Virus record (IMG/VR): IMGVR_UViG_3300045988_138358
DNA length: 64,000 nucleotides
From: a virus
Lineage: Duplodnaviria; Heunggongvirae; Uroviricota; Caudoviricetes
Reading direction: 5' to 3' (one strand)
The notes under the pieces: model-generated
What the model was told of the DNA's origin: nothing
The model's input: only the letters and a program-made list of their open reading frames with translations
The model's database searches: none
Shown: positions 37,047 to 53,066 of the stretch, piece by piece
Position numbering within the stretch: the stretch's first letter is position 1
Layout of the letters: every line of letters begins with the position of its first letter
Position numbers and translations under genes: made by a program

Positions 37047-37437
37047 ACCAGCGAGATAAGCGAACGACGTGTTTTACCTTAGCGATCCACTTACCACGTG
37101 AGTTATTAATTACGGCCTGCGCCACCTTTAAGCTGACTTCAAAATCAGCCTTACGACCATCAGAATCCACCAGCGTTGCACCGTCTATTTCCGGCAGGCT
37201 TAAATAATCCTGTTCTACCTCTAATGGCATTGACGGCTCTCTGAATGGTGTCAATTGCCGAGCTTTCCAGATAAAGCGAACTCTCAATCCCCTATAAGCC
37301 ATTACCATGTAGCCTGTTATCGTGCTCTTATGGCCTGCATCAGTACGCGCAGCATTACACGATACAATCTTACAGGTGACGATATTCCACTCCACGTTGG
37401 AGACTTCGTGAATGCTTAATTTTGTTGTCTCGTACAT
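37045..37437 (-). CDS. hypothetical protein
   Basis: 130-aa ORF. Confidence 0.4.
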   Translation of the reverse strand: MYETTKLSIHEVSNVEWNIVTCKIVSCNAARTDAGHKSTITGYMVMAYRGLRVRFIWKARQLTPFREPSMPLEVEQDYLSLPEIDGATLVDSDGRKADFEVSLKVAQAVINNSRGKWIAKVKHVVRLSRW

Positions 37438-38012
37438 CAGAATGCCTCCCAGTCAGTTGCGATAATATCCACGCCAGTTGCGAACCAGTCTGTCTGCGCC
37501 TGTAAATCCCCATTCATCATTACCAGGCGAGGCATAACCATCACATCGCACCCTTCCACAATATCGAATGCCTCTTCCGGCAAGAATTCGAAGAGCTTTT
37601 CTTTGCTGCCAATGCTGCCACGGAACATCGATAAATAGCTCCCTTTAGGCCATGATGCCCGGCGGGCATCCAGCCCCTTCATCATCCAGAACATGGCGGC
37701 AGAAAAATTGATGTTCTTTTTGGCGATGAAAACATTATTGGCTTCTGTTTGCTTCAGAAACTTAATTAGCCTTGCCATCGACTCGGATAACGCTACGTAT
37801 GGCTCATGATTGGCTGCGGACACGCTCACACCATGTAATCCAACACTGACTACCGTCATATCGCCGCTTTGAGCGGTTTCAATGTTGACACCTTTGCGAA
37901 CTAACGAGGCATAAAGTTCCTCTCGCTTTTGTGTCCAGCGTTCCCGCTGACCGATGAAGTCACTCAATATGAGGTCTGCTTCTGCATACGCGTTATCGTT
38001 CGCCGTTAACAT
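37437..38012 (-). CDS. hypothetical protein
   Basis: 191 aa; AMFWMMKGLDARRASW motif similar to the protein at 29291-29755. Confidence 0.45.
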   Translation of the reverse strand: MLTANDNAYAEADLILSDFIGQRERWTQKREELYASLVRKGVNIETAQSGDMTVVSVGLHGVSVSAANHEPYVALSESMARLIKFLKQTEANNVFIAKKNINFSAAMFWMMKGLDARRASWPKGSYLSMFRGSIGSKEKLFEFLPEEAFDIVEGCDVMVMPRLVMMNGDLQAQTDWFATGVDIIATDWEAF

Positions 38013-38465
38013 AACGTCTCCTTTTTACACGCGCGACCATCCCTCGGTTAAACCGATAGAGATGTCGAAACTTCGTATTAATTAAGGGTTACAGCCTGAG
38101 CGGCTATATGATGAATTGAAAGGAGTTGTGGCGGTGGTGCCTCCACCTGCCAGGTTAGCCACTCCTGGCGACGTCACTTATCAGAACGTAGTGAATGAAA
38201 ATGGCTTCGTCACGAGCGCATAGCCGCAATTACCACAACGGAAACGGCGCTCACGCTAATTAAACGCCTTTTCCTGTTGTGCGCCGTACTCTTCCGGCTG
38301 TCACACCGAATCGCCAGGGTGGTGAGTCCTCGGTCCGACGATATGAACGGGGCTTGCACATTCCGGCTACCTGGTTTGTTGCCTGAGCTAGGGGAAAAGG
38401 TAACCCCTTTAACGTCACCAGACCGCTAACGACGCATGTGCCATACGCCGTGTTACAACCAAATA

Positions 38466-38541
38466 TGGTGGCCCCTACCGGACTTGAACCGGTGACCGTG
38501 CGATTATGAGTCGCCAGCTCTAACCACTGAGCTAAAGGGCC
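38466..38541 (-). tRNA. tRNA-Ile (anticodon CAT, ileX-like; Met not excluded)
   Basis: Reverse complement folds as a canonical cloverleaf with anticodon loop CTCATAA and encoded CCA; very close to E. coli ileX as recalled. Confidence 0.8.
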
Positions 38542-38953
38542 AGATTACTGTTAATTCCGCTTACGCTTTTTGCCAGAACCGCGTAAGGCTTTTGCCGCTT
38601 GCTCGATCCCATATGCAACCACCAGCAGAAATAAAAATGTCCAACCAGGGTTCTTATCGGCAAAGGCCCAAAAATCCATCACTTGCAGCTACCTTTTAAG
38701 ACAAAACGCCATTGCTGTTAGATTGCGGTGCCTGGTGCCTCCAGGTGACGTTAACCAGTTAACAATTAACGCCGGGATGTTTGATTTAACCACTAAGGAG
38801 GATTGTTTTAACTGTTCCGCGTGCGCTTAGCCGCATTCACCGCAATGGTAAGAGCACTTGGCTGGCTGGGCGGCGATGACGCCTGTACGCATTTGGTGAT
38901 CCGGTTCTGCTTCCGGCATTCGCTTAATTAGCCAAATACTCTTAACGTTGCGC

Positions 38954-39040
38954 TGGCGGAGAGTAATGGAATCGAACCATCATCGCTTGCGCAATGGGAC
39001 GGTTTTCAAGACCGCTTGAGCACCATGCTCCCTACTCTCC
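38954..39040 (-). tRNA. class II tRNA, probably Ser (anticodon TGA), atypical D-arm
   Basis: 87 nt; 7-bp acceptor stem, anticodon loop CTTGAAA, long variable arm, T-arm GATGG-TTCGATT-CCATT, G73, CCA; D-arm does not fold canonically. Confidence 0.45.
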
Positions 39041-39185
39041 GGCCGTTGTGGTGGCCGGTACTGAATCTCCGGCATACGGTGCAGCCAATTAGGACTACGG
39101 ACGATCACCGCTCGCGAAAGGGAAGATTTGCGGCCGCATTTCCCTAACATCCAAGAAAGCTATCGCATCAGTCTGCGAATCCACC

Positions 39186-39277
39186 ACAACGTTGAGAACA
39201 CTGGTTGTCACGCTGCAACGCAACATTTATTCGTAGATTGGGATATGACCCCGTTACGTCAGTGTTCTCAACGTTGT
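39186..39277. repeat. perfect 18-bp inverted repeat with 56-nt loop
   Basis: ACAACGTTGAGAACACTG at 39186-39203 and its exact reverse complement at 39260-39277, in the non-coding tRNA region. Confidence 0.6.
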
Positions 39278-39420
39278 AGTACCGGTTACGGTTCCGGCCA
39301 GGCCTCTTCCTCAACGGGGTATTCTCCATACGGACTACCGTTTATTGGTCGTTCCTGCGGTTTATGTTGTGAAGCCAGATGCTTATCTTCTGGTTGCTTC
39401 AAAGAGCTGCACTTCATCAC

Positions 39421-39500
39421 AACGGTAAGGGTACTTCGTAGGGATTCGAACCCTCTGCCAAGCACGGCGATCTCCGACGTCGCAAAATACCCTTACCTGT
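39421..39500 (-). pseudogene. tRNA-like remnant
   Basis: GGGTTCGAATCCC T-arm-like element enclosed by a 10-bp helix (GGTAAGGGTA/TACCCTTACC); no canonical cloverleaf can be drawn. Confidence 0.25.
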
Positions 39501-39505
39501 TGTGT

Positions 39506-39581
39506 TGGTGCCGATTAACGGACTCGAACCGCTGACATCCTGCTTACAAGGCAGGCGCTCTACCAACTGAGCTAAACCGGC
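39506..39581 (-). tRNA. tRNA-Thr (anticodon TGT)
   Basis: Canonical cloverleaf, anticodon loop CTTGTAA, T-loop TTCGAGT, CCA encoded. Confidence 0.85.
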
Positions 39582-39583
39582 AT

Positions 39584-39660
39584 TGGCGATGGTGGGTGGA
39601 TTCGAACCACCGACCGACAGCTTAGAAGGCTGCTGCTCTATCCTACTGAGCTACACCATC
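39584..39660 (-). tRNA. tRNA-Arg (anticodon TCT)
   Basis: Canonical cloverleaf, anticodon loop CTTCTAA, T-loop TTCGAAT, CCA encoded; 2 nt from tRNA-Thr. Confidence 0.8.
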
Positions 39661-40163
39661 ACTTGCCGGTTACGTCTCCGGCGAGGGCTTCCACCTCCGT
39701 ATGCTTTTCGGCGCACCGCGCCCTGGCTGCAATTCGGTAACAGGGGATGCACAACCCTGGCTTCCAGCGTGATTAGCGCCTTCAGCATGACGGGATATAC
39801 CCGTAACCAACAAACTTTCCCATATACCATCAAACAATGGCTGTTACGCGGGAGGGACGTAACAGGTAAGGGCGCTGACCAGAAAGACCTGACCCTTCTC
39901 ATTCATCTGGTTAATCACACCAGCGCCCTTGCCTGTTATGCCTCCCCGTTCCCTAATACACAGACGGGGACACTCTGCGGTCGATTTTTTGACGGGGGAC
40001 GACTCATACCCCGTGGCGTCTGGCTTCTTAGGCCGCTACCATCATCAGATCATCGTTTGCATTTACTTTAATGGTCGGTTTCTAAACCGCCGCAAAGCCG
40101 CTAACCATGACGAAAACCCTAAAAAAGCCCACCCGAAGATGGGCAAATACGCTACATCTCACA

Positions 40164-40242
40164 CAAGAAAGAAGCCGACTGCCTGAGCTGGATTCACTTT
40201 CAAATGCCCGCAGAAAGGGAACACAAGTCGGCTTCTTTCTTG
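40164..40242. repeat. perfect 17-bp inverted repeat with 45-nt loop
   Basis: CAAGAAAGAAGCCGACT at 40164-40180 and its exact reverse complement at 40226-40242. Confidence 0.6.
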
Positions 40243-40899
40243 ATGCGGCACTCTCTCCGCCCGTCACCGCTCTGTCTCGGTTGTCGCGTTTGCCACGCCA
40301 GCCATAACGAGGTTTAAAGTCTTTGCACGTTTCCATCACTCGACTGCCGTCTGTGGCTGTTCGTTGCAGCGGGGGTGCCTCCCCCTGGGGATATCCCCGG
40401 CCTTACCCCATTCTTTCAAGACACAATGCAAGGCCGCATCCGCATAGGTGCATTACCGCAACATTAAGGAGACTTAGGGCAAAAGGTAATCGCCACAAAA
40501 AAATCCCTATGCCTCCTTAATGTTGAGGATGTGCATTGATGATGATTCGATGCGGCGAGTCCCGTTACTCTCTGCCGGACCATCATCAATGAACATCTTA
40601 AAAAGACCTTCCGTGGCTCAACATGTCTTGTCGTTTACTCCGTAAAGTGCTCTCTCTGAAACCACTTTACGCACTAAACCTGCTGAACTTTGGCTTGCTC
40701 GGTGCCAAAGCGAATCCCTGTATGCATGTAATTTTCTAACACTTTAATTTGTTATTTGCTGGTGGGCGAACAACAACCAATAAGTGACTATCAAGCCCAG
40801 CAAGCGAAATGTGGCAACGCTCCACCAGCAAGGAAAATTCTAAGTTAAGTTACTCTCACAATCAATATGTTCGTTTGGTGAAATTAGATTTCTAACACA

Positions 40900-42106
40900 T
40901 TATTTCCCATAAAGATCTTCTACGCCCCCATTCTTCTTGTCCCATTCGTTAGCCCACACCCGGCAGGCATCAATAATTTCTTGACGACGGTCGCCCTGCA
41001 TAAAGGGGATGCTTTCATGAAAACTACTTGGGATACAGGCCACGCTGAATACGGTATCAAACGCAGTCTGTTTGATAGCTTCCAACGTCTCTGGGCGCAT
41101 TTTCAATTCATCGATCGGCGCATCCTTAGAGTCCATAATCCGGCGATGCAGGCGCGGGAAATCAGTCTCCAGGTACGCCATAATTTTATCTGCCAGGCAT
41201 TCGTCTATATCGGTATTCCAGTCCGTTTCGAAGCCGGGCAGGCGATAGTAAAGCGGCGTTCCCCATACTGATGGGATCACATCCATCGTCAGCAGGCGGT
41301 TGGTTCTAATTTGTTGATGGTAATTAGCCGTCAACAGAGCTTCACCACGCTGACCAGTCTCCGCAACCAGACCATGCGGGTACTCATGGATATAGGCAAT
41401 AGCATCCACCCCGTCATACATGAGCGGGAATGTCTCTGGCCTTTGTCCCATACCACAAGCGCGGTTCAGATCATGACCAAGCTGTGAGCACTCTCGTTTC
41501 AGCGTTTCAATAATGTTCTGCGCTGCTGCTAACTTTTTACGCAGTGTGACGCCTTCGCCTTGATACTTAATGCATTGCTGATTCAGCTCTGTTAAACGCT
41601 CTTTTAGTTCCCGACGCTCTCTTTTCAGCGCACGGTTATCCTTCTCCGCAACATCCAGTCGTTTTGACAGACTGGCTGGATAGTCTTTTTTGTAACGACT
41701 CAAATCGGCTTCTGCGGATTTGCGCAGTGTGTTTGCCTGTTCAAGACGCGCTTCCAGATTGCCGATCTCACTACGCATATTCGCGGCAAATTGATTAACA
41801 GCATTGCCAAGACTTTCAACTGTCGCTGATACGCCTGTGACTTGTGAAAAACGGATCAAGCCATCATTAACGGCTTGTTGATATTCCTCAAACTGATCCA
41901 CCAGCTTGTTGTAATCAACCGTCCCTTCCTCAAGTAGCTGGTTGATCTCCGCGACCAGGTTATCAGTAGTGGCAATGACGCTCTCATGTAGCCGTCTAGA
42001 CAGGTCATCCCCCGGATTCCGCTTTTGAATAAGGGCGATCTGTGTCCGCAGCGTTTCAATCGCGGCTGAGATGATTTCCAGATTAGAAGTATCAGTTTGT
42101 TGACTC
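40900..42106 (-). CDS. coiled-coil protein, unknown function
   Basis: About 400 aa; long N-terminal heptad-rich region; start at MSQQTD; operator-like motif just upstream. Confidence 0.5.
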
Positions 42107-52512: not shown

Positions 52513-52934
52513 CAGTGTGCCTCCGCAATTCCGGGATTGGTAATATTGCGATACCAAGGATTAGTGTTTGGTTGTGATGAAGTAGAGAAACGGCCAGTCA
52601 GGACGCCATGTTGATCAGGGATCAGAGAACGGGCTTCTTTTTCAGTTGCGGCAATTGCGAAGTGATCACAGTGTTTTTGCAGGGAGTGGAAACGCCAGAT
52701 AAATTCCGGGCGCGAGCAAGGATTGGCATTAACCATAGTTACGGCCTCATTCGTAGGTTTAACAACCTGCGCCCCGCTGCTAAACGGGTGGCAGGACGTG
52801 ACGGGGTTAGCAGACTGGCACGAATGAAACCAGCAGGCCGAAGCCTCCCCATCACGCCCCACCATAATTCGGGCGTAACGTGGTTTTACGGACACAAAAA
52901 TACCGCAATATCGGATATCTGCGGTTGTCCGCAT
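52512..52934 (-). CDS. Icd/Ash-like small protein (tentative)
   Basis: Overlaps the start of the Rha/Ant-like gene as icd does in P1; the 5' part may be structured leader RNA rather than coding. Confidence 0.3.
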   Translation of the reverse strand: MRTTADIRYCGIFVSVKPRYARIMVGRDGEASACWFHSCQSANPVTSCHPFSSGAQVVKPTNEAVTMVNANPCSRPEFIWRFHSLQKHCDHFAIAATEKEARSLIPDQHGVLTGRFSTSSQPNTNPWYRNITNPGIAEAH

Positions 52935-53066
52935 TCGTATTCAGGCTGCTAAACCCGGTCGCAGAATTTGCTACGACGACATGAATATAAGCCTGAAAAC
53001 ATGGAAGATCAACTAAAAATTTCAGCAATGGATGACTTCAGTCGATGATGCAGATCATACATTCCG

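Follow-up and report, generated by a model that had tools for sequence, protein, structure and literature searches.

The window, a stretch of 64,000 nucleotides of viral DNA, contains exactly four tRNA genes according to ARAGORN, every one on the minus strand: tRNA-Ile2 with the anticodon CAT (38466-38541), tRNA-Ser(UGA) (38954-39040), tRNA-Thr(UGU) (39506-39581), and tRNA-Arg(UCU) (39584-39660). A CCA end is encoded in each of the four genes. Three of them match the general tRNA family of Rfam (RF00005; gathering score, 29) at 65-73 bits (Ile2, 64.7 bits; Thr, 72.9 bits; Arg, 72.1 bits) and E-values between 1e-11 and 1e-14. A plasmid, NZ_CP116989.1, is 99.9% identical to the window, and its RefSeq/PGAP annotation, used here for comparison, gives tRNA-Ile, tRNA-Ser, tRNA-Thr, and tRNA-Arg at matching positions. 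The four minus-strand tRNA genes of the first-pass annotation are therefore agreed on by ARAGORN, which accepts all four folds, by Rfam for three of them, and by PGAP.

Judged from sequence similarity, the window comes from a D6-like E. coli phage-plasmid in the P1 family (P1/D6-type). Identity to the phage-plasmid D6 is 95.8%, and there is also homology to P7 and to P1 (92.7% identity to P1 over 39166-40147); across P1-like plasmids the whole tRNA region is 92-99% conserved. By its sequence, the locus corresponds to the tRNA/ban-leader region of P1, and the tRNA cluster is in this respect already known. The P1 annotation (NC_005856) of the matching region lists Pban and its operator, trnA, trnT, tciABC, trnI, and ban. 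Gene order and strand of the P1 ban leader, with trnA (Asn), trnT (Thr), and trnI (Ile2), are common to the window; the Thr and Ile2 tRNAs of the two are 100% identical, and two non-tRNA structures of the array, the tRNA-like element (TLE) and module B described below, are also present in P1. The two loci differ in that the window has Arg(UCU) where P1 has Asn, lacks tciA and tciB, has an operator sequence unlike that of P1, and carries the array after pmgS instead of after dmt. The window and D6 also carry an extra (8/4) tRNA-Ser relative to P1; P7 has the same tRNA-Ser, unannotated.

The region had been described in the first-pass annotation as free of protein genes, but in NZ_CP116989.1 PGAP annotates a hypothetical protein there, corresponding to a small TciC-like ORF of 43 amino acids on the minus strand (38551-38682); its N-terminus (M-FW-FADK-P) resembles that of P1 TciC. 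CRISPRi knock-down in P1 of trnT, plp (which overlies the TLE), upl, tciABC, and trnI caused no plaque defect (PMC10695390), so none of trnT, the plp/TLE region, upl, tciABC, and trnI is needed on the laboratory host.

The leader and the Ile2, Thr, and Arg tRNAs

The locus would be the non-coding leader of a minus-strand polycistronic operon, probably controlled by the C1 repressor, that matches the leader of the P1 ban operon. As an account of the whole, a ban-like operon leader carrying four functional tRNAs together with a conserved non-tRNA RNA module is probably the best explanation. Upstream of the array is a putative minus-strand control region (40730-40898), in which two copies of the operator-like motif GTGTTAGAAA (40730-40742 and 40886-40898) flank a sigma-70-like promoter (40837-40865; promoter scan), an arrangement like that at Pban, the C1-controlled promoter ahead of the tRNAs in P1. 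The window has 13 copies of the motif where 0.5 would be expected; besides the two copies upstream of the array, one lies upstream of the c4 region. Counting against the operon explanation, a terminator-like hairpin found by consensus scan on the minus strand (GCCCAUCUUCGGGUGGGC, then U6; 40127-40144) sits between the proposed promoter and the tRNAs. P1 homology stops at this hairpin, inside the 'dicF-like region' of P1. Several further hairpins are found in the leader (39661-40900) besides the terminator-like site.

ARAGORN labels the CAT tRNA as Met. The label is wrong: by its identity to P1 trnI, which the P1 annotation gives as tRNA-Ile2 with 89% identity to E. coli ileX, the gene is a tRNA-Ile2 of the ileX type, as the first-pass assignment to Ile had it. 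Its CAU anticodon would read AUA once modified with lysidine.

Aligned with the D6, P1, and type-B Asn genes, tRNA-Arg(UCU) is a chimera in which the body of the P1-family tRNA-Asn has acquired a D loop and an anticodon arm of Arg type. The gene probably arose in place from the tRNA-Asn gene of the family by a swap of the D loop and the anticodon arm, a change of tRNA identity from Asn to Arg in a gene that is otherwise identical. Relatives differ in the slot upstream of tRNA-Thr, which is filled by Asn, Tyr, or Arg.

The same pair of Ile2 and Arg(UCU) is found in the ileZ-argN-argO genes downstream of Q in Stx phages, tRNA genes for the rare codons AUA and AGA. Both arrays occupy the late leader of temperate coliphages, and the niche downstream of Q is where lambdoid copies of the TLE sit. 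However, ileZ-argN-argO belongs to another phage family and is under other promoter control, and argO is only ~84% identical to the tRNA-Arg of the window, over its central part.

The serine tRNA of the (8/4) class

The tRNA-Ser(UGA) at 38954-39040 is called by ARAGORN and PGAP but fails the general tRNA model of Rfam, where its top family is tRNA-Sec (RF01852; 46.6 bits against a gathering score of 47). In the fold, an acceptor stem of 8 bp goes with a T stem of 4 bp, and G73 and CCA are present; the variable arm is a 5-bp stem with a GCAA loop, and the D arm is a compact, Sec-like 5-bp hairpin (GAGCA/UGCUC) with a loop of 3-4 nt and retains the GG. It is a genuine class II tRNA with the non-canonical D arm that the first-pass annotation had noticed; it is not an oddity of this locus, since (8/4) tRNA-Ser, or allo-tRNA, is a published class (Mukai et al. 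2017, Nucleic Acids Res, PMC5389517). With the published class, the tRNA of the window has in common its phage origin, a 12-bp acceptor/T branch open to an 8+4 reading, the Sec-like D stem-loop, a long variable arm together with G73, an anticodon for serine, and a score for tRNA-Sec close to the threshold. The variable arm and G73 are identity elements for SerRS.

Comparison of sequences places the tRNA of the window in the (8/4) class, with its 12-bp branch split 8+4 and not 7+5. The window's own tRNA allows 7/5 too (G60.U76), since its subfamily has G at position 60 and the G.U-paired 7/5 fold is open to it; the preference for 8/4 comes from the relatives. Among 35 of these, pair 8:81 is A-U in 25, G-C in nine, and unpaired in one, while pair 65:81 of the 7/5 alternative is G.U in 23, G-C in seven, A-U in two, and unpaired in three, with no change on both sides among the 35. 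Three relatives (L080, L109, and L010b) fit 8/4 only, and one (L130) fits 7/5. All four D-stem pairs are changed on both sides across relatives, and the variable stem has a compensatory change in close relatives (C-G to U-A in L048). Relatives are annotated as tRNA-Ser in rV5-, T5-, and T4-like phages and in phages of Acinetobacter, Pseudomonas, and Streptomyces; the D loop of the P1-family tRNA is 1 nt shorter than in the rV5-like relatives.

This tRNA resembles tRNA-Sec in having a compact D arm and in the length of its acceptor stem and its variable arm. Identity as tRNA-Sec was rejected: in place of a UCA anticodon it has UGA, for the Ser codon UCA, the branch has 12 bp and not 13, and the score is below threshold. 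In E. coli, SerRS charges other allo-tRNAs with serine, and EF-Tu and the ribosome accept them (PMC5389517); by analogy, the tRNA-Ser of the window should take serine and travel with EF-Tu like an ordinary tRNA-Ser. With this assignment, the (8/4) class extends to phage-plasmids of the P1/P7/D6 and SSU5 types, which are very common in Enterobacteriaceae, and the remark of the D6 annotators that the amino acid of this tRNA could not be called is resolved. As such, the tRNA cluster adds little, P1-family tRNAs and (8/4) serine tRNAs having been described already.

The tRNA-like element and other long-stem RNAs

The fifth element of the array, the TLE (39418-39504, minus strand), consists of a 21-bp stem (15+6) with arms at 39483-39504 and 39418-39438, closed over a core (39439-39482) that is made up of a D-like hairpin (39468-39482), a short hairpin, and a T arm, AGGG-UUCGAAU-CCCU (39440-39454). 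Its fold has a z score of -5.6 against shuffles. The first-pass annotation had recognized a T arm within a helix and the lack of a cloverleaf, both of which stand; the helix it gave as 10 bp is the 21-bp stem.

The TLE is found in 115 viral contigs, in 48 distinct versions. Over these versions the ~50-nt core, with its D-like hairpin and perfect T arm, is nearly invariant, and the spacing from D-like hairpin to T arm is limited to 13-17 nt; the core is too constant for its internal fold to have support from covariation. The stem has changed on both sides at 13 of its 21 pairs. It is 91.5% paired, against 33-54% when the arms are slid, and none of 500 shuffles reaches as high a value. Wobble pairs in the stem (UG 20, UG 9, GU 5, and GU 4) greatly outnumber A.C mismatches, of which there are very few, and this excess of G.U over A.C points to an RNA on the minus strand. 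The same core occurs in three unrelated phage backgrounds with the flanking stem wholly rewritten through compensatory changes.

Outside the P1 family, 19 of 21 loci carry the TLE without any tRNA within ~5 kb. In the lambdoid loci L141, L146, L135, L199, L209, and L213 it follows gene Q on the same strand at a distance of 150-550 nt, and in every locus examined its orientation follows the local transcription unit. An element that is conserved, has a covarying stem, and stands alone in phages without nearby tRNA genes does not fit the remnant of the first-pass annotation, if a decaying pseudogene is meant by it. What was supposed to be a pseudogene becomes a candidate new structured RNA, with strong stem covariation and a niche at the start of lambdoid late transcripts.

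Identity as a tRNA was rejected, as a four-arm cloverleaf with an anticodon arm is absent and tRNA models reject the element: ARAGORN does not call it a tRNA in the window or in 21 other loci, where it finds no intact-tRNA version either, and a search of 37500-41500 against Rfam at E-values up to 10 places no family on it, RF00005 included. The element also carries no annotation. Identity as a YrlA/Y RNA-like RNA (RF02553) was rejected as well, the sole weak match (24.4 bits; gathering score, 69) falling on the Thr and Arg tRNAs at 39556-39616. Weak Rfam matches to tmRNA_permuted, alpha_tmRNA, YrlA, and miRNA families fall elsewhere or are noise. A relaxed pattern (CGGAGATCGC...GTTCGAATC), run to pick up copies whose T stem has decayed, brought in nothing beyond chance matches in coding-like DNA, and a scan of genome contigs gave two matches, one in Escherichia and one apparently by chance (Desulfobacteraceae MAG). 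Literature searches on STnc100/Pas sRNAs, allo-tRNA, D6-like plasmids, and the CRISPRi and transcriptome work on P1 turned up neither an account of the TLE or the frame hairpins nor any small-RNA mapping of this region.

The TLE keeps the parts of the tRNA elbow, a T arm and a D-like hairpin with GG, as do YrlA and the tRNA-like domain of tmRNA, and like tRNA-like non-coding RNAs it has no decoding anticodon arm; in the P1 family it lies beside phage tRNAs. The stable 'species 1/2' RNAs encoded in the tRNA cluster of T4 offer a further comparison with a tRNA-like non-coding RNA. The TLE differs from YrlA/tmRNA-type RNAs in that its long stem extends the acceptor position and not the anticodon position; it has neither a free CCA end nor a Ro, rtc, or smpB context, and no Rfam match to those RNAs falls on it.

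Two further long-stem hairpins lie on the same strand, and the TLE is one of several 'frame and cargo' hairpins of the array. Module B (39183-39280; inverted repeat I6, 95% complementary; fold z score, -6.9) has a 21-bp stem around a core with a T-arm-like GGGGUCAUAUCCC; the core sequence GTAACGGGNTCATATCCCAAT, set in either of two different frames, was found in at least 120 viral contigs. The other hairpin (39851-39947; inverted repeat I3, direct-repeat family D2) has a TLE-like basal frame, CAUAACAGGCAAGGG..., around other cargo and matches the TLE model weakly (19.5 bits; z score, -5.2). In related phage-plasmids, the frame stem of the TLE surrounds different cargos.

Between the Ile2 and Ser tRNAs lies an STnc100-like structured RNA (38724-38844, minus strand) that matches RF02076 at 39.4 bits (E = 3e-6). 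Full membership of STnc100 was rejected: the score falls short of 47, the gathering score, and only model positions 31-147 of 206 are covered, whereas a true STnc100, in L213, scores 109.7 bits. Paralogous pieces of the element are found at 38125-38251 and 40363-40387. The prophage sRNAs STnc100/PasD (RF02076; bioRxiv 10.64898/2026.05.13.724894) share with the TLE a niche in the late leader of lambdoid prophages, and in L213 the full STnc100 comes directly after a copy of the TLE. The two RNAs differ in sequence and fold, and the TLE has no match to the STnc100 model.

Possible roles of the array and of the tRNA-like element

In 51 long ORFs of the window, AGA is used 6.1, AUA 11.1, ACA 13.7, and UCA 14.0 times per 1000 codons; the corresponding values for E. 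coli are ~2, 4-5, ~7, and ~7. All four tRNAs read A-ending codons that E. coli uses rarely, including the rare AGA codon that the first-pass annotation had assigned to Arg-UCU, and use of these codons in the phage is about two to three times that in E. coli. The most likely role of the tRNAs would be to top up translation during lytic growth. The tRNA-Asn of P1 itself reads common codons, so codon supply does not explain every tRNA found in this slot.

For the TLE, we picture a conserved RNA module in which a tRNA elbow, formed by the D-like hairpin and the T arm, would be mounted on a 21-bp stem on the strand of the tRNAs. The preferred mechanism, a tentative one, is that the TLE would act at the RNA level on the processing or stability of polycistronic phage transcripts, in which the long stem would be an entry site for RNase III and the elbow would be recognized by tRNA-processing or tRNA-modifying enzymes. 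In a broader form, put forward with the same reserve, the TLE and its sister hairpins may form an undescribed family of 'frame and cargo' RNA modules of phages, in which the TLE would be a selected elbow mimic on a long stem that engages tRNA-recognizing machinery for phage transcripts. Selection would act in P1-like, lambdoid, and P22-like phages on an element placed after tRNA-Thr or after a Q-dependent late terminator; the partners would be RNase P, RNase III, modification enzymes, or a host defence factor, and the transcripts would be processed, stabilized, or protected. Its function is directly testable in P1, which carries the TLE, is easily handled genetically, and can dispense with the region.

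A less likely alternative is that the tRNAs serve mainly as insurance against host defences and colicins that target tRNAs (anticodon nucleases), with the TLE as a decoy of the tRNA elbow. The occupants of the slot before tRNA-Thr would suit such a role: Asn and Tyr tRNAs are targets of colicin E5, and Arg is a target of colicin D. Nearby P1 genes are annotated as 'tellurite or colicin resistance', a Tad2 anti-Thoeris gene lies directly downstream, and the P1 tRNA-Asn is poorly explained by codon supply, Asn codons not being rare. On the other hand, all four anticodons of the window match codons enriched two- to threefold in the phage, as codon supply predicts, and the anticodon loops are canonical; as bait for an anticodon nuclease, the TLE would lack the anticodon loop.

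That the TLE is an inert, decaying tRNA pseudogene carried along in a conserved region is unlikely. Its rejection by ARAGORN and Rfam, with no cloverleaf possible, and the knock-down of the P1 'plp' region without a plaque phenotype (PMC10695390) would be expected of such a relic, and in P1-like plasmids, where the region as a whole is conserved, the conservation of the TLE is uninformative. The argument against it comes from elsewhere: the constancy of the core in unrelated phage backgrounds while the stem is rewritten with compensation, the 19 of 21 non-P1 loci with no tRNA nearby, and the relaxed scan, which turned up chance matches and no copies with a degraded T stem.

Still less probable is that the long inverted repeats, the stem of the TLE among them, act as DNA, as sites of recombination or cassette exchange or as cruciforms. 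Recombination inside these units clearly occurs, as one frame carries different cargos and chimeric copies mix 5' and 3' arm types (L134 and L154 for the TLE; L157 and L139 for module B). Yet the wobbles are strongly asymmetric between the strands, G.U cells numbering in the dozens and A.C cells only a handful, the core contains a perfect T-loop consensus oriented as in the neighbouring tRNAs, and orientation tracks the local transcription unit in each of the loci examined.

Finally, the reading of 39128-39535 as plus-strand coding sequence (P1 Plp, a 'putative lipoprotein', with Upl upstream), with the RNA structure incidental, was rejected as very improbable: a 135-aa ORF at least 90% like P1 Plp does stay open across the TLE in all variants, but it begins with TTG, is rich in Cys, Arg, and Ser, is not called by PGAP in NZ_CP116989.1, and ends inside tRNA-Thr, its 'RRDSNPLP' and C-terminal 'TDSNR' are the antisense of T arms, 93-nt variants shift the frame downstream of RDSNPLP, and the substitutions in the arms are compensatory and G.U-specific on the minus strand. 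The genes plp and upl of P1 may accordingly be artefacts of annotation.

Four tRNA genes and their identities

Across the entire 64 kb of the window, ARAGORN calls four minus-strand tRNA genes, each with an encoded CCA: a CAT gene (Ile2; 38466-38541), tRNA-Ser(TGA) (38954-39040), tRNA-Thr(TGT) (39506-39581), and tRNA-Arg(TCT) (39584-39660). These are exactly the positions proposed in the first-pass annotation, and RefSeq/PGAP places tRNA-Ile, -Ser, -Thr, and -Arg at matching positions in the E. coli plasmid NZ_CP116989.1, which is 99.9% identical to the region. Phage D6 is 95.8% identical, with its tRNAs annotated on the wrong strand relative to ARAGORN, and P7 and P1 match large parts of the region. 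The homologous P1 sequence forms the leader of the ban operon, which is under C1 control, and has the order Pban/operator, dicF-like region, trnA(Asn), trnT, plp and upl (opposite strand), tciABC, trnI, and ban. The cluster as a whole is genuine and for the most part unremarkable: it is already known from phages, and one of its tRNAs belongs to an unusual class that is likewise known. P1 trnI, an Ile2 gene annotated with 89% identity to ileX, matches the CAT gene at 100% identity, so the earlier assignment of the latter to Ile is right and the "Met" of ARAGORN is a default label only; tRNA-Thr is 100% identical to P1 trnT. Three of the four genes score 65-73 bits with the Rfam general tRNA model, the exception being the Ser gene.

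The Ser gene (87 nt) fails the general model, and its best Rfam match is tRNA-Sec at 46.6 bits, below the gathering score of 47. Its acceptor stem is GGAGAGU(A) and its D hairpin, GAGCA-UGG-UGCUC, is compact; the anticodon arm (GCGGU-CUUGAAA-ACCGU) nearly matches the one in E. coli tRNA-Ser(UGA), GCAA closes a variable arm of 5 bp, and a T arm is followed by G73 and CCA. This is exactly the kind of tRNA defined by a 12-bp acceptor branch divided into an 8-bp acceptor stem and a 4-bp T stem (8/4, the usual division being 7/5), a Sec-like D stem-loop, a long variable arm, and G73 (Mukai et al.; PMC5389517). Among 35 relatives, position 8 and the base 3' of the T stem form A-U in 25, G-C in nine, and are unpaired in one; the pair required by the 7/5 alternative is G.U in 23, G-C in seven, A-U in two, and unpaired in three, with no two-sided changes. 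Three members fit 8/4 only and one fits 7/5, and all four D-stem pairs show two-sided changes. These comparisons assign the gene to the known 8/4 class, although the window's own copy taken alone may also fold as 7/5 with one G.U pair. The earlier call of a probable Ser tRNA with a non-canonical D-arm thus holds. The D6 record notes "AA not called by tRNAscan-SE" for this gene because of the 8/4 architecture. Other allo-tRNAs are serylated in published work, and by analogy this one would be charged by SerRS.

Distant BLAST relatives of the Ser gene occur in 386 phage records, annotated as tRNA-Ser in Vequintavirus (about 90% identity), T5-like Sugarlandvirus (78%), T4-like Klebsiella phages (73%), and Acinetobacter, Pseudomonas, and Streptomyces phages. 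Scanning IMG/VR with a pattern brings in at least 120 more loci. An unannotated copy with 100% identity is present in P7 (AF503408.1 72237-72357).

The Arg gene is a chimera in which an Asn identity was switched to Arg in place, and this is a new part of the finding. The type B tRNA-Asn of the P1 family, present in 25 loci, has an identical acceptor stem, D stem, variable loop, T arm, G73, and CCA, while Arg-like sequence makes up the entire anticodon arm and the D loop, which is now GGAUA and bears the A20 that Arg tRNAs typically have. Over its central part the gene shows no more than about 91% identity to any phage tRNA-Arg in GenBank. Relatives fill this slot with an Asn gene, an Arg gene, or a Tyr gene of class II.

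In 51 long ORFs of the window the codons AGA, AUA, ACA, and UCA are used at 6.1, 11.1, 13.7, and 14.0 per 1000, roughly two to three times the E. coli values of about 2, 4-5, 7, and 7. Every tRNA of the window therefore reads an A-ending codon that is commoner in the phage than in the host, and the array fits a classical codon-supply role, which is predicted here.

A conserved tRNA-like RNA module

Directly after tRNA-Thr in the P1 family lies a tRNA-like element (TLE; 39418-39504, minus strand), which the first-pass annotation took for a tRNA remnant with a T-arm inside a 10-bp helix. The T arm is there (AGGG-UUCGAAU-CCCU) and, as that annotation held, the element is no cloverleaf, ARAGORN calling it a tRNA nowhere; the helix, however, is a 21-bp stem (15+6 bp, one bulged A) that encloses about 50 nt, including a D-like hairpin, (G)CGA-YGYCGGAG-A-UCG(C), with GG kept, and a middle hairpin of 2-3 bp (z = -5.6). 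Nor is it a decaying remnant: it is a conserved, covarying, unannotated tRNA-like RNA module found in three temperate phage groups, and as such is new. Its core pattern occurs in 115 IMG/VR contigs in 48 distinct versions, many of the contigs being 30-55 kb prophages, and in Enterobacter phage BUCT554. No tRNA lies within about 5 kb in 19 of 21 non-P1 loci, a relaxed pattern finds no copies with an altered T stem, no Rfam family matches the element, and PGAP annotates nothing there.

Across an alignment of 26 sequences the core hardly varies, whereas the stem sequence is replaced, with two-sided changes at 13 of its 21 pairs; a single position takes U.G, A-U, G-C, C-G, and G.U. Stem cells are paired in 91.5% of cases versus 33-54% with the partner slid, and none of 500 shuffles reaches the observed value. 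G.U wobbles are abundant and A.C almost absent, which places the structure in the minus-strand RNA, in the same sense as the tRNAs.

A plus-strand ORF (39128-39535) also covers the element, and in P1, where the TLE is 98% conserved, the element lies antisense inside the annotated ORF plp. That the plus strand is protein-coding is unlikely, however: the ORF has a TTG start, its peptides "RRDSNPLP" and "TDSNR" are antisense T arms, it terminates inside tRNA-Thr (trnT in P1), PGAP makes no call, and 1-nt length variants break the frame. P1 plp ("putative lipoprotein") and upl (3660-4229 in L002, the P1 locus) are antisense to the TLE and to a second long-stem hairpin, module B; both look like annotation artefacts.

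Outside the P1 family the TLE occupies other niches. In six lambdoid loci (L141, L146, L135, L199, L209, and L213) its position is 150-550 nt past the gene for the Q antiterminator, in the same orientation and ahead of the holin and endolysin genes, where the Q-dependent late transcript begins; it often directly follows a terminator-like GGGGCUUUUUU. In L213 a full STnc100 sRNA (109.7 bits) comes immediately after it. In L224 an HNH gene and the holin gene flank it, and in Uetakevirus-like phages it occupies the terminase-portal gap.

Long-stem hairpins with exchanged parts

The supposedly "empty" 3-kb region contains tRNAs, long-stem RNA modules, and STnc100-like pieces, arranged as an array. 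Its description as free of protein genes needs one small correction, a 43-aa TciC-like ORF that PGAP annotates in NZ_CP116989.1 between the Ile and Ser tRNAs (38551-38682). A covariance model built from the TLE matches, at 24-37 bits, hairpins in sister phage-plasmids (loci L014, L031, L056, L066, L071, L074, L081, L085, L097, L099, L104, L106, L114, and L133) that share the basal stem CACAACAGGUAAGRGCAUU...AAUGCUCUUACCGUUGUG and carry unrelated inserts.

Module B (39183-39280, minus strand) has a 21-bp stem and a T-arm-like GGGGUCAUAUCCC core (z = -6.9); this core, set in either of two different frames, recurs across at least 120 viral contigs and is often present twice per P1-like genome. 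Chimeric copies of the TLE (L134, L154) and of module B (L157, L139, L160) combine 5' and 3' arms from different stem types, leaving the stem mismatched, which points to recombination inside the conserved cores.

An STnc100-like RNA (38724-38844, minus strand) scores 39.4 bits, below the Rfam threshold of 47; related pieces lie at 38125-38251 and 40363-40387, and copies of the GGAGGCACC hairpin motif lie near 38144, 38742, and 40382. Six further long inverted repeats or hairpins occur in the non-coding leader, all on the minus strand (39851-39947, 38234-38281, 40164-40242, 40523-40602, 40435-40549, and 40633-40679). The first is a weaker match to the TLE model (19.5 bits), and the first two have the basal frame sequence CAYAACAGGNAAGG in common with the TLE stem.

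Predicted control of the array and possible role of the module

The window has 13 copies of the motif GTGTTAGAAAWYW, with 0.5 expected (6307, 6326, 16136, 16792, 20888, 31136, 32537, 40730, 40886, 42136, 43179, 53085, and 54286), and these copies, which differ from the P1 operator sequence, are probably operators of the phage's C1-type repressor. The c4/a1b1 immunity RNAs have one copy about 95 nt upstream of them; ahead of the array are two more, which flank the only sigma-70-like promoter that a promoter scan found there (40837-40865). By analogy with the C1 operators at Pban of P1, the array would be repressed in lysogens and expressed upon induction from a C1-controlled promoter. A terminator-like hairpin (40127-40144) lies between the candidate promoter and the array.

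The anatomy of the TLE, a tRNA elbow stacked on a 21-bp helix without anticodon or free CCA, and its location at junctions of polycistronic non-coding or late transcripts tentatively favor a module for RNA processing or stability, in which RNase III would act on the stem and tRNA-processing or -modifying enzymes on the elbow. Should the module prove functional, it would add a new type to the tRNA-like RNAs. That the same elbow serves as a decoy for a tRNA-binding factor is rather improbable, and so, to a similar degree, is that the TLE is an inert passenger; CRISPRi found the region dispensable for P1 on a laboratory host (PMC10695390). P1 transcriptome papers report transcription of the neighboring genes during lytic growth; a small-RNA map of the region was not found in them.

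Elsewhere in the window, a C4 antisense RNA (52784-52869, minus strand; 71.9 bits) and its a1/b1 target element (52938-52990, minus strand; 52.2 bits) form part of a P1/P7-type immunity I region. Directly downstream of the tRNA/ncRNA array, at 37437-38012 on the minus strand, lies a gene that PGAP annotates in NZ_CP116989.1 as a Tad2 family Thoeris anti-defence protein.
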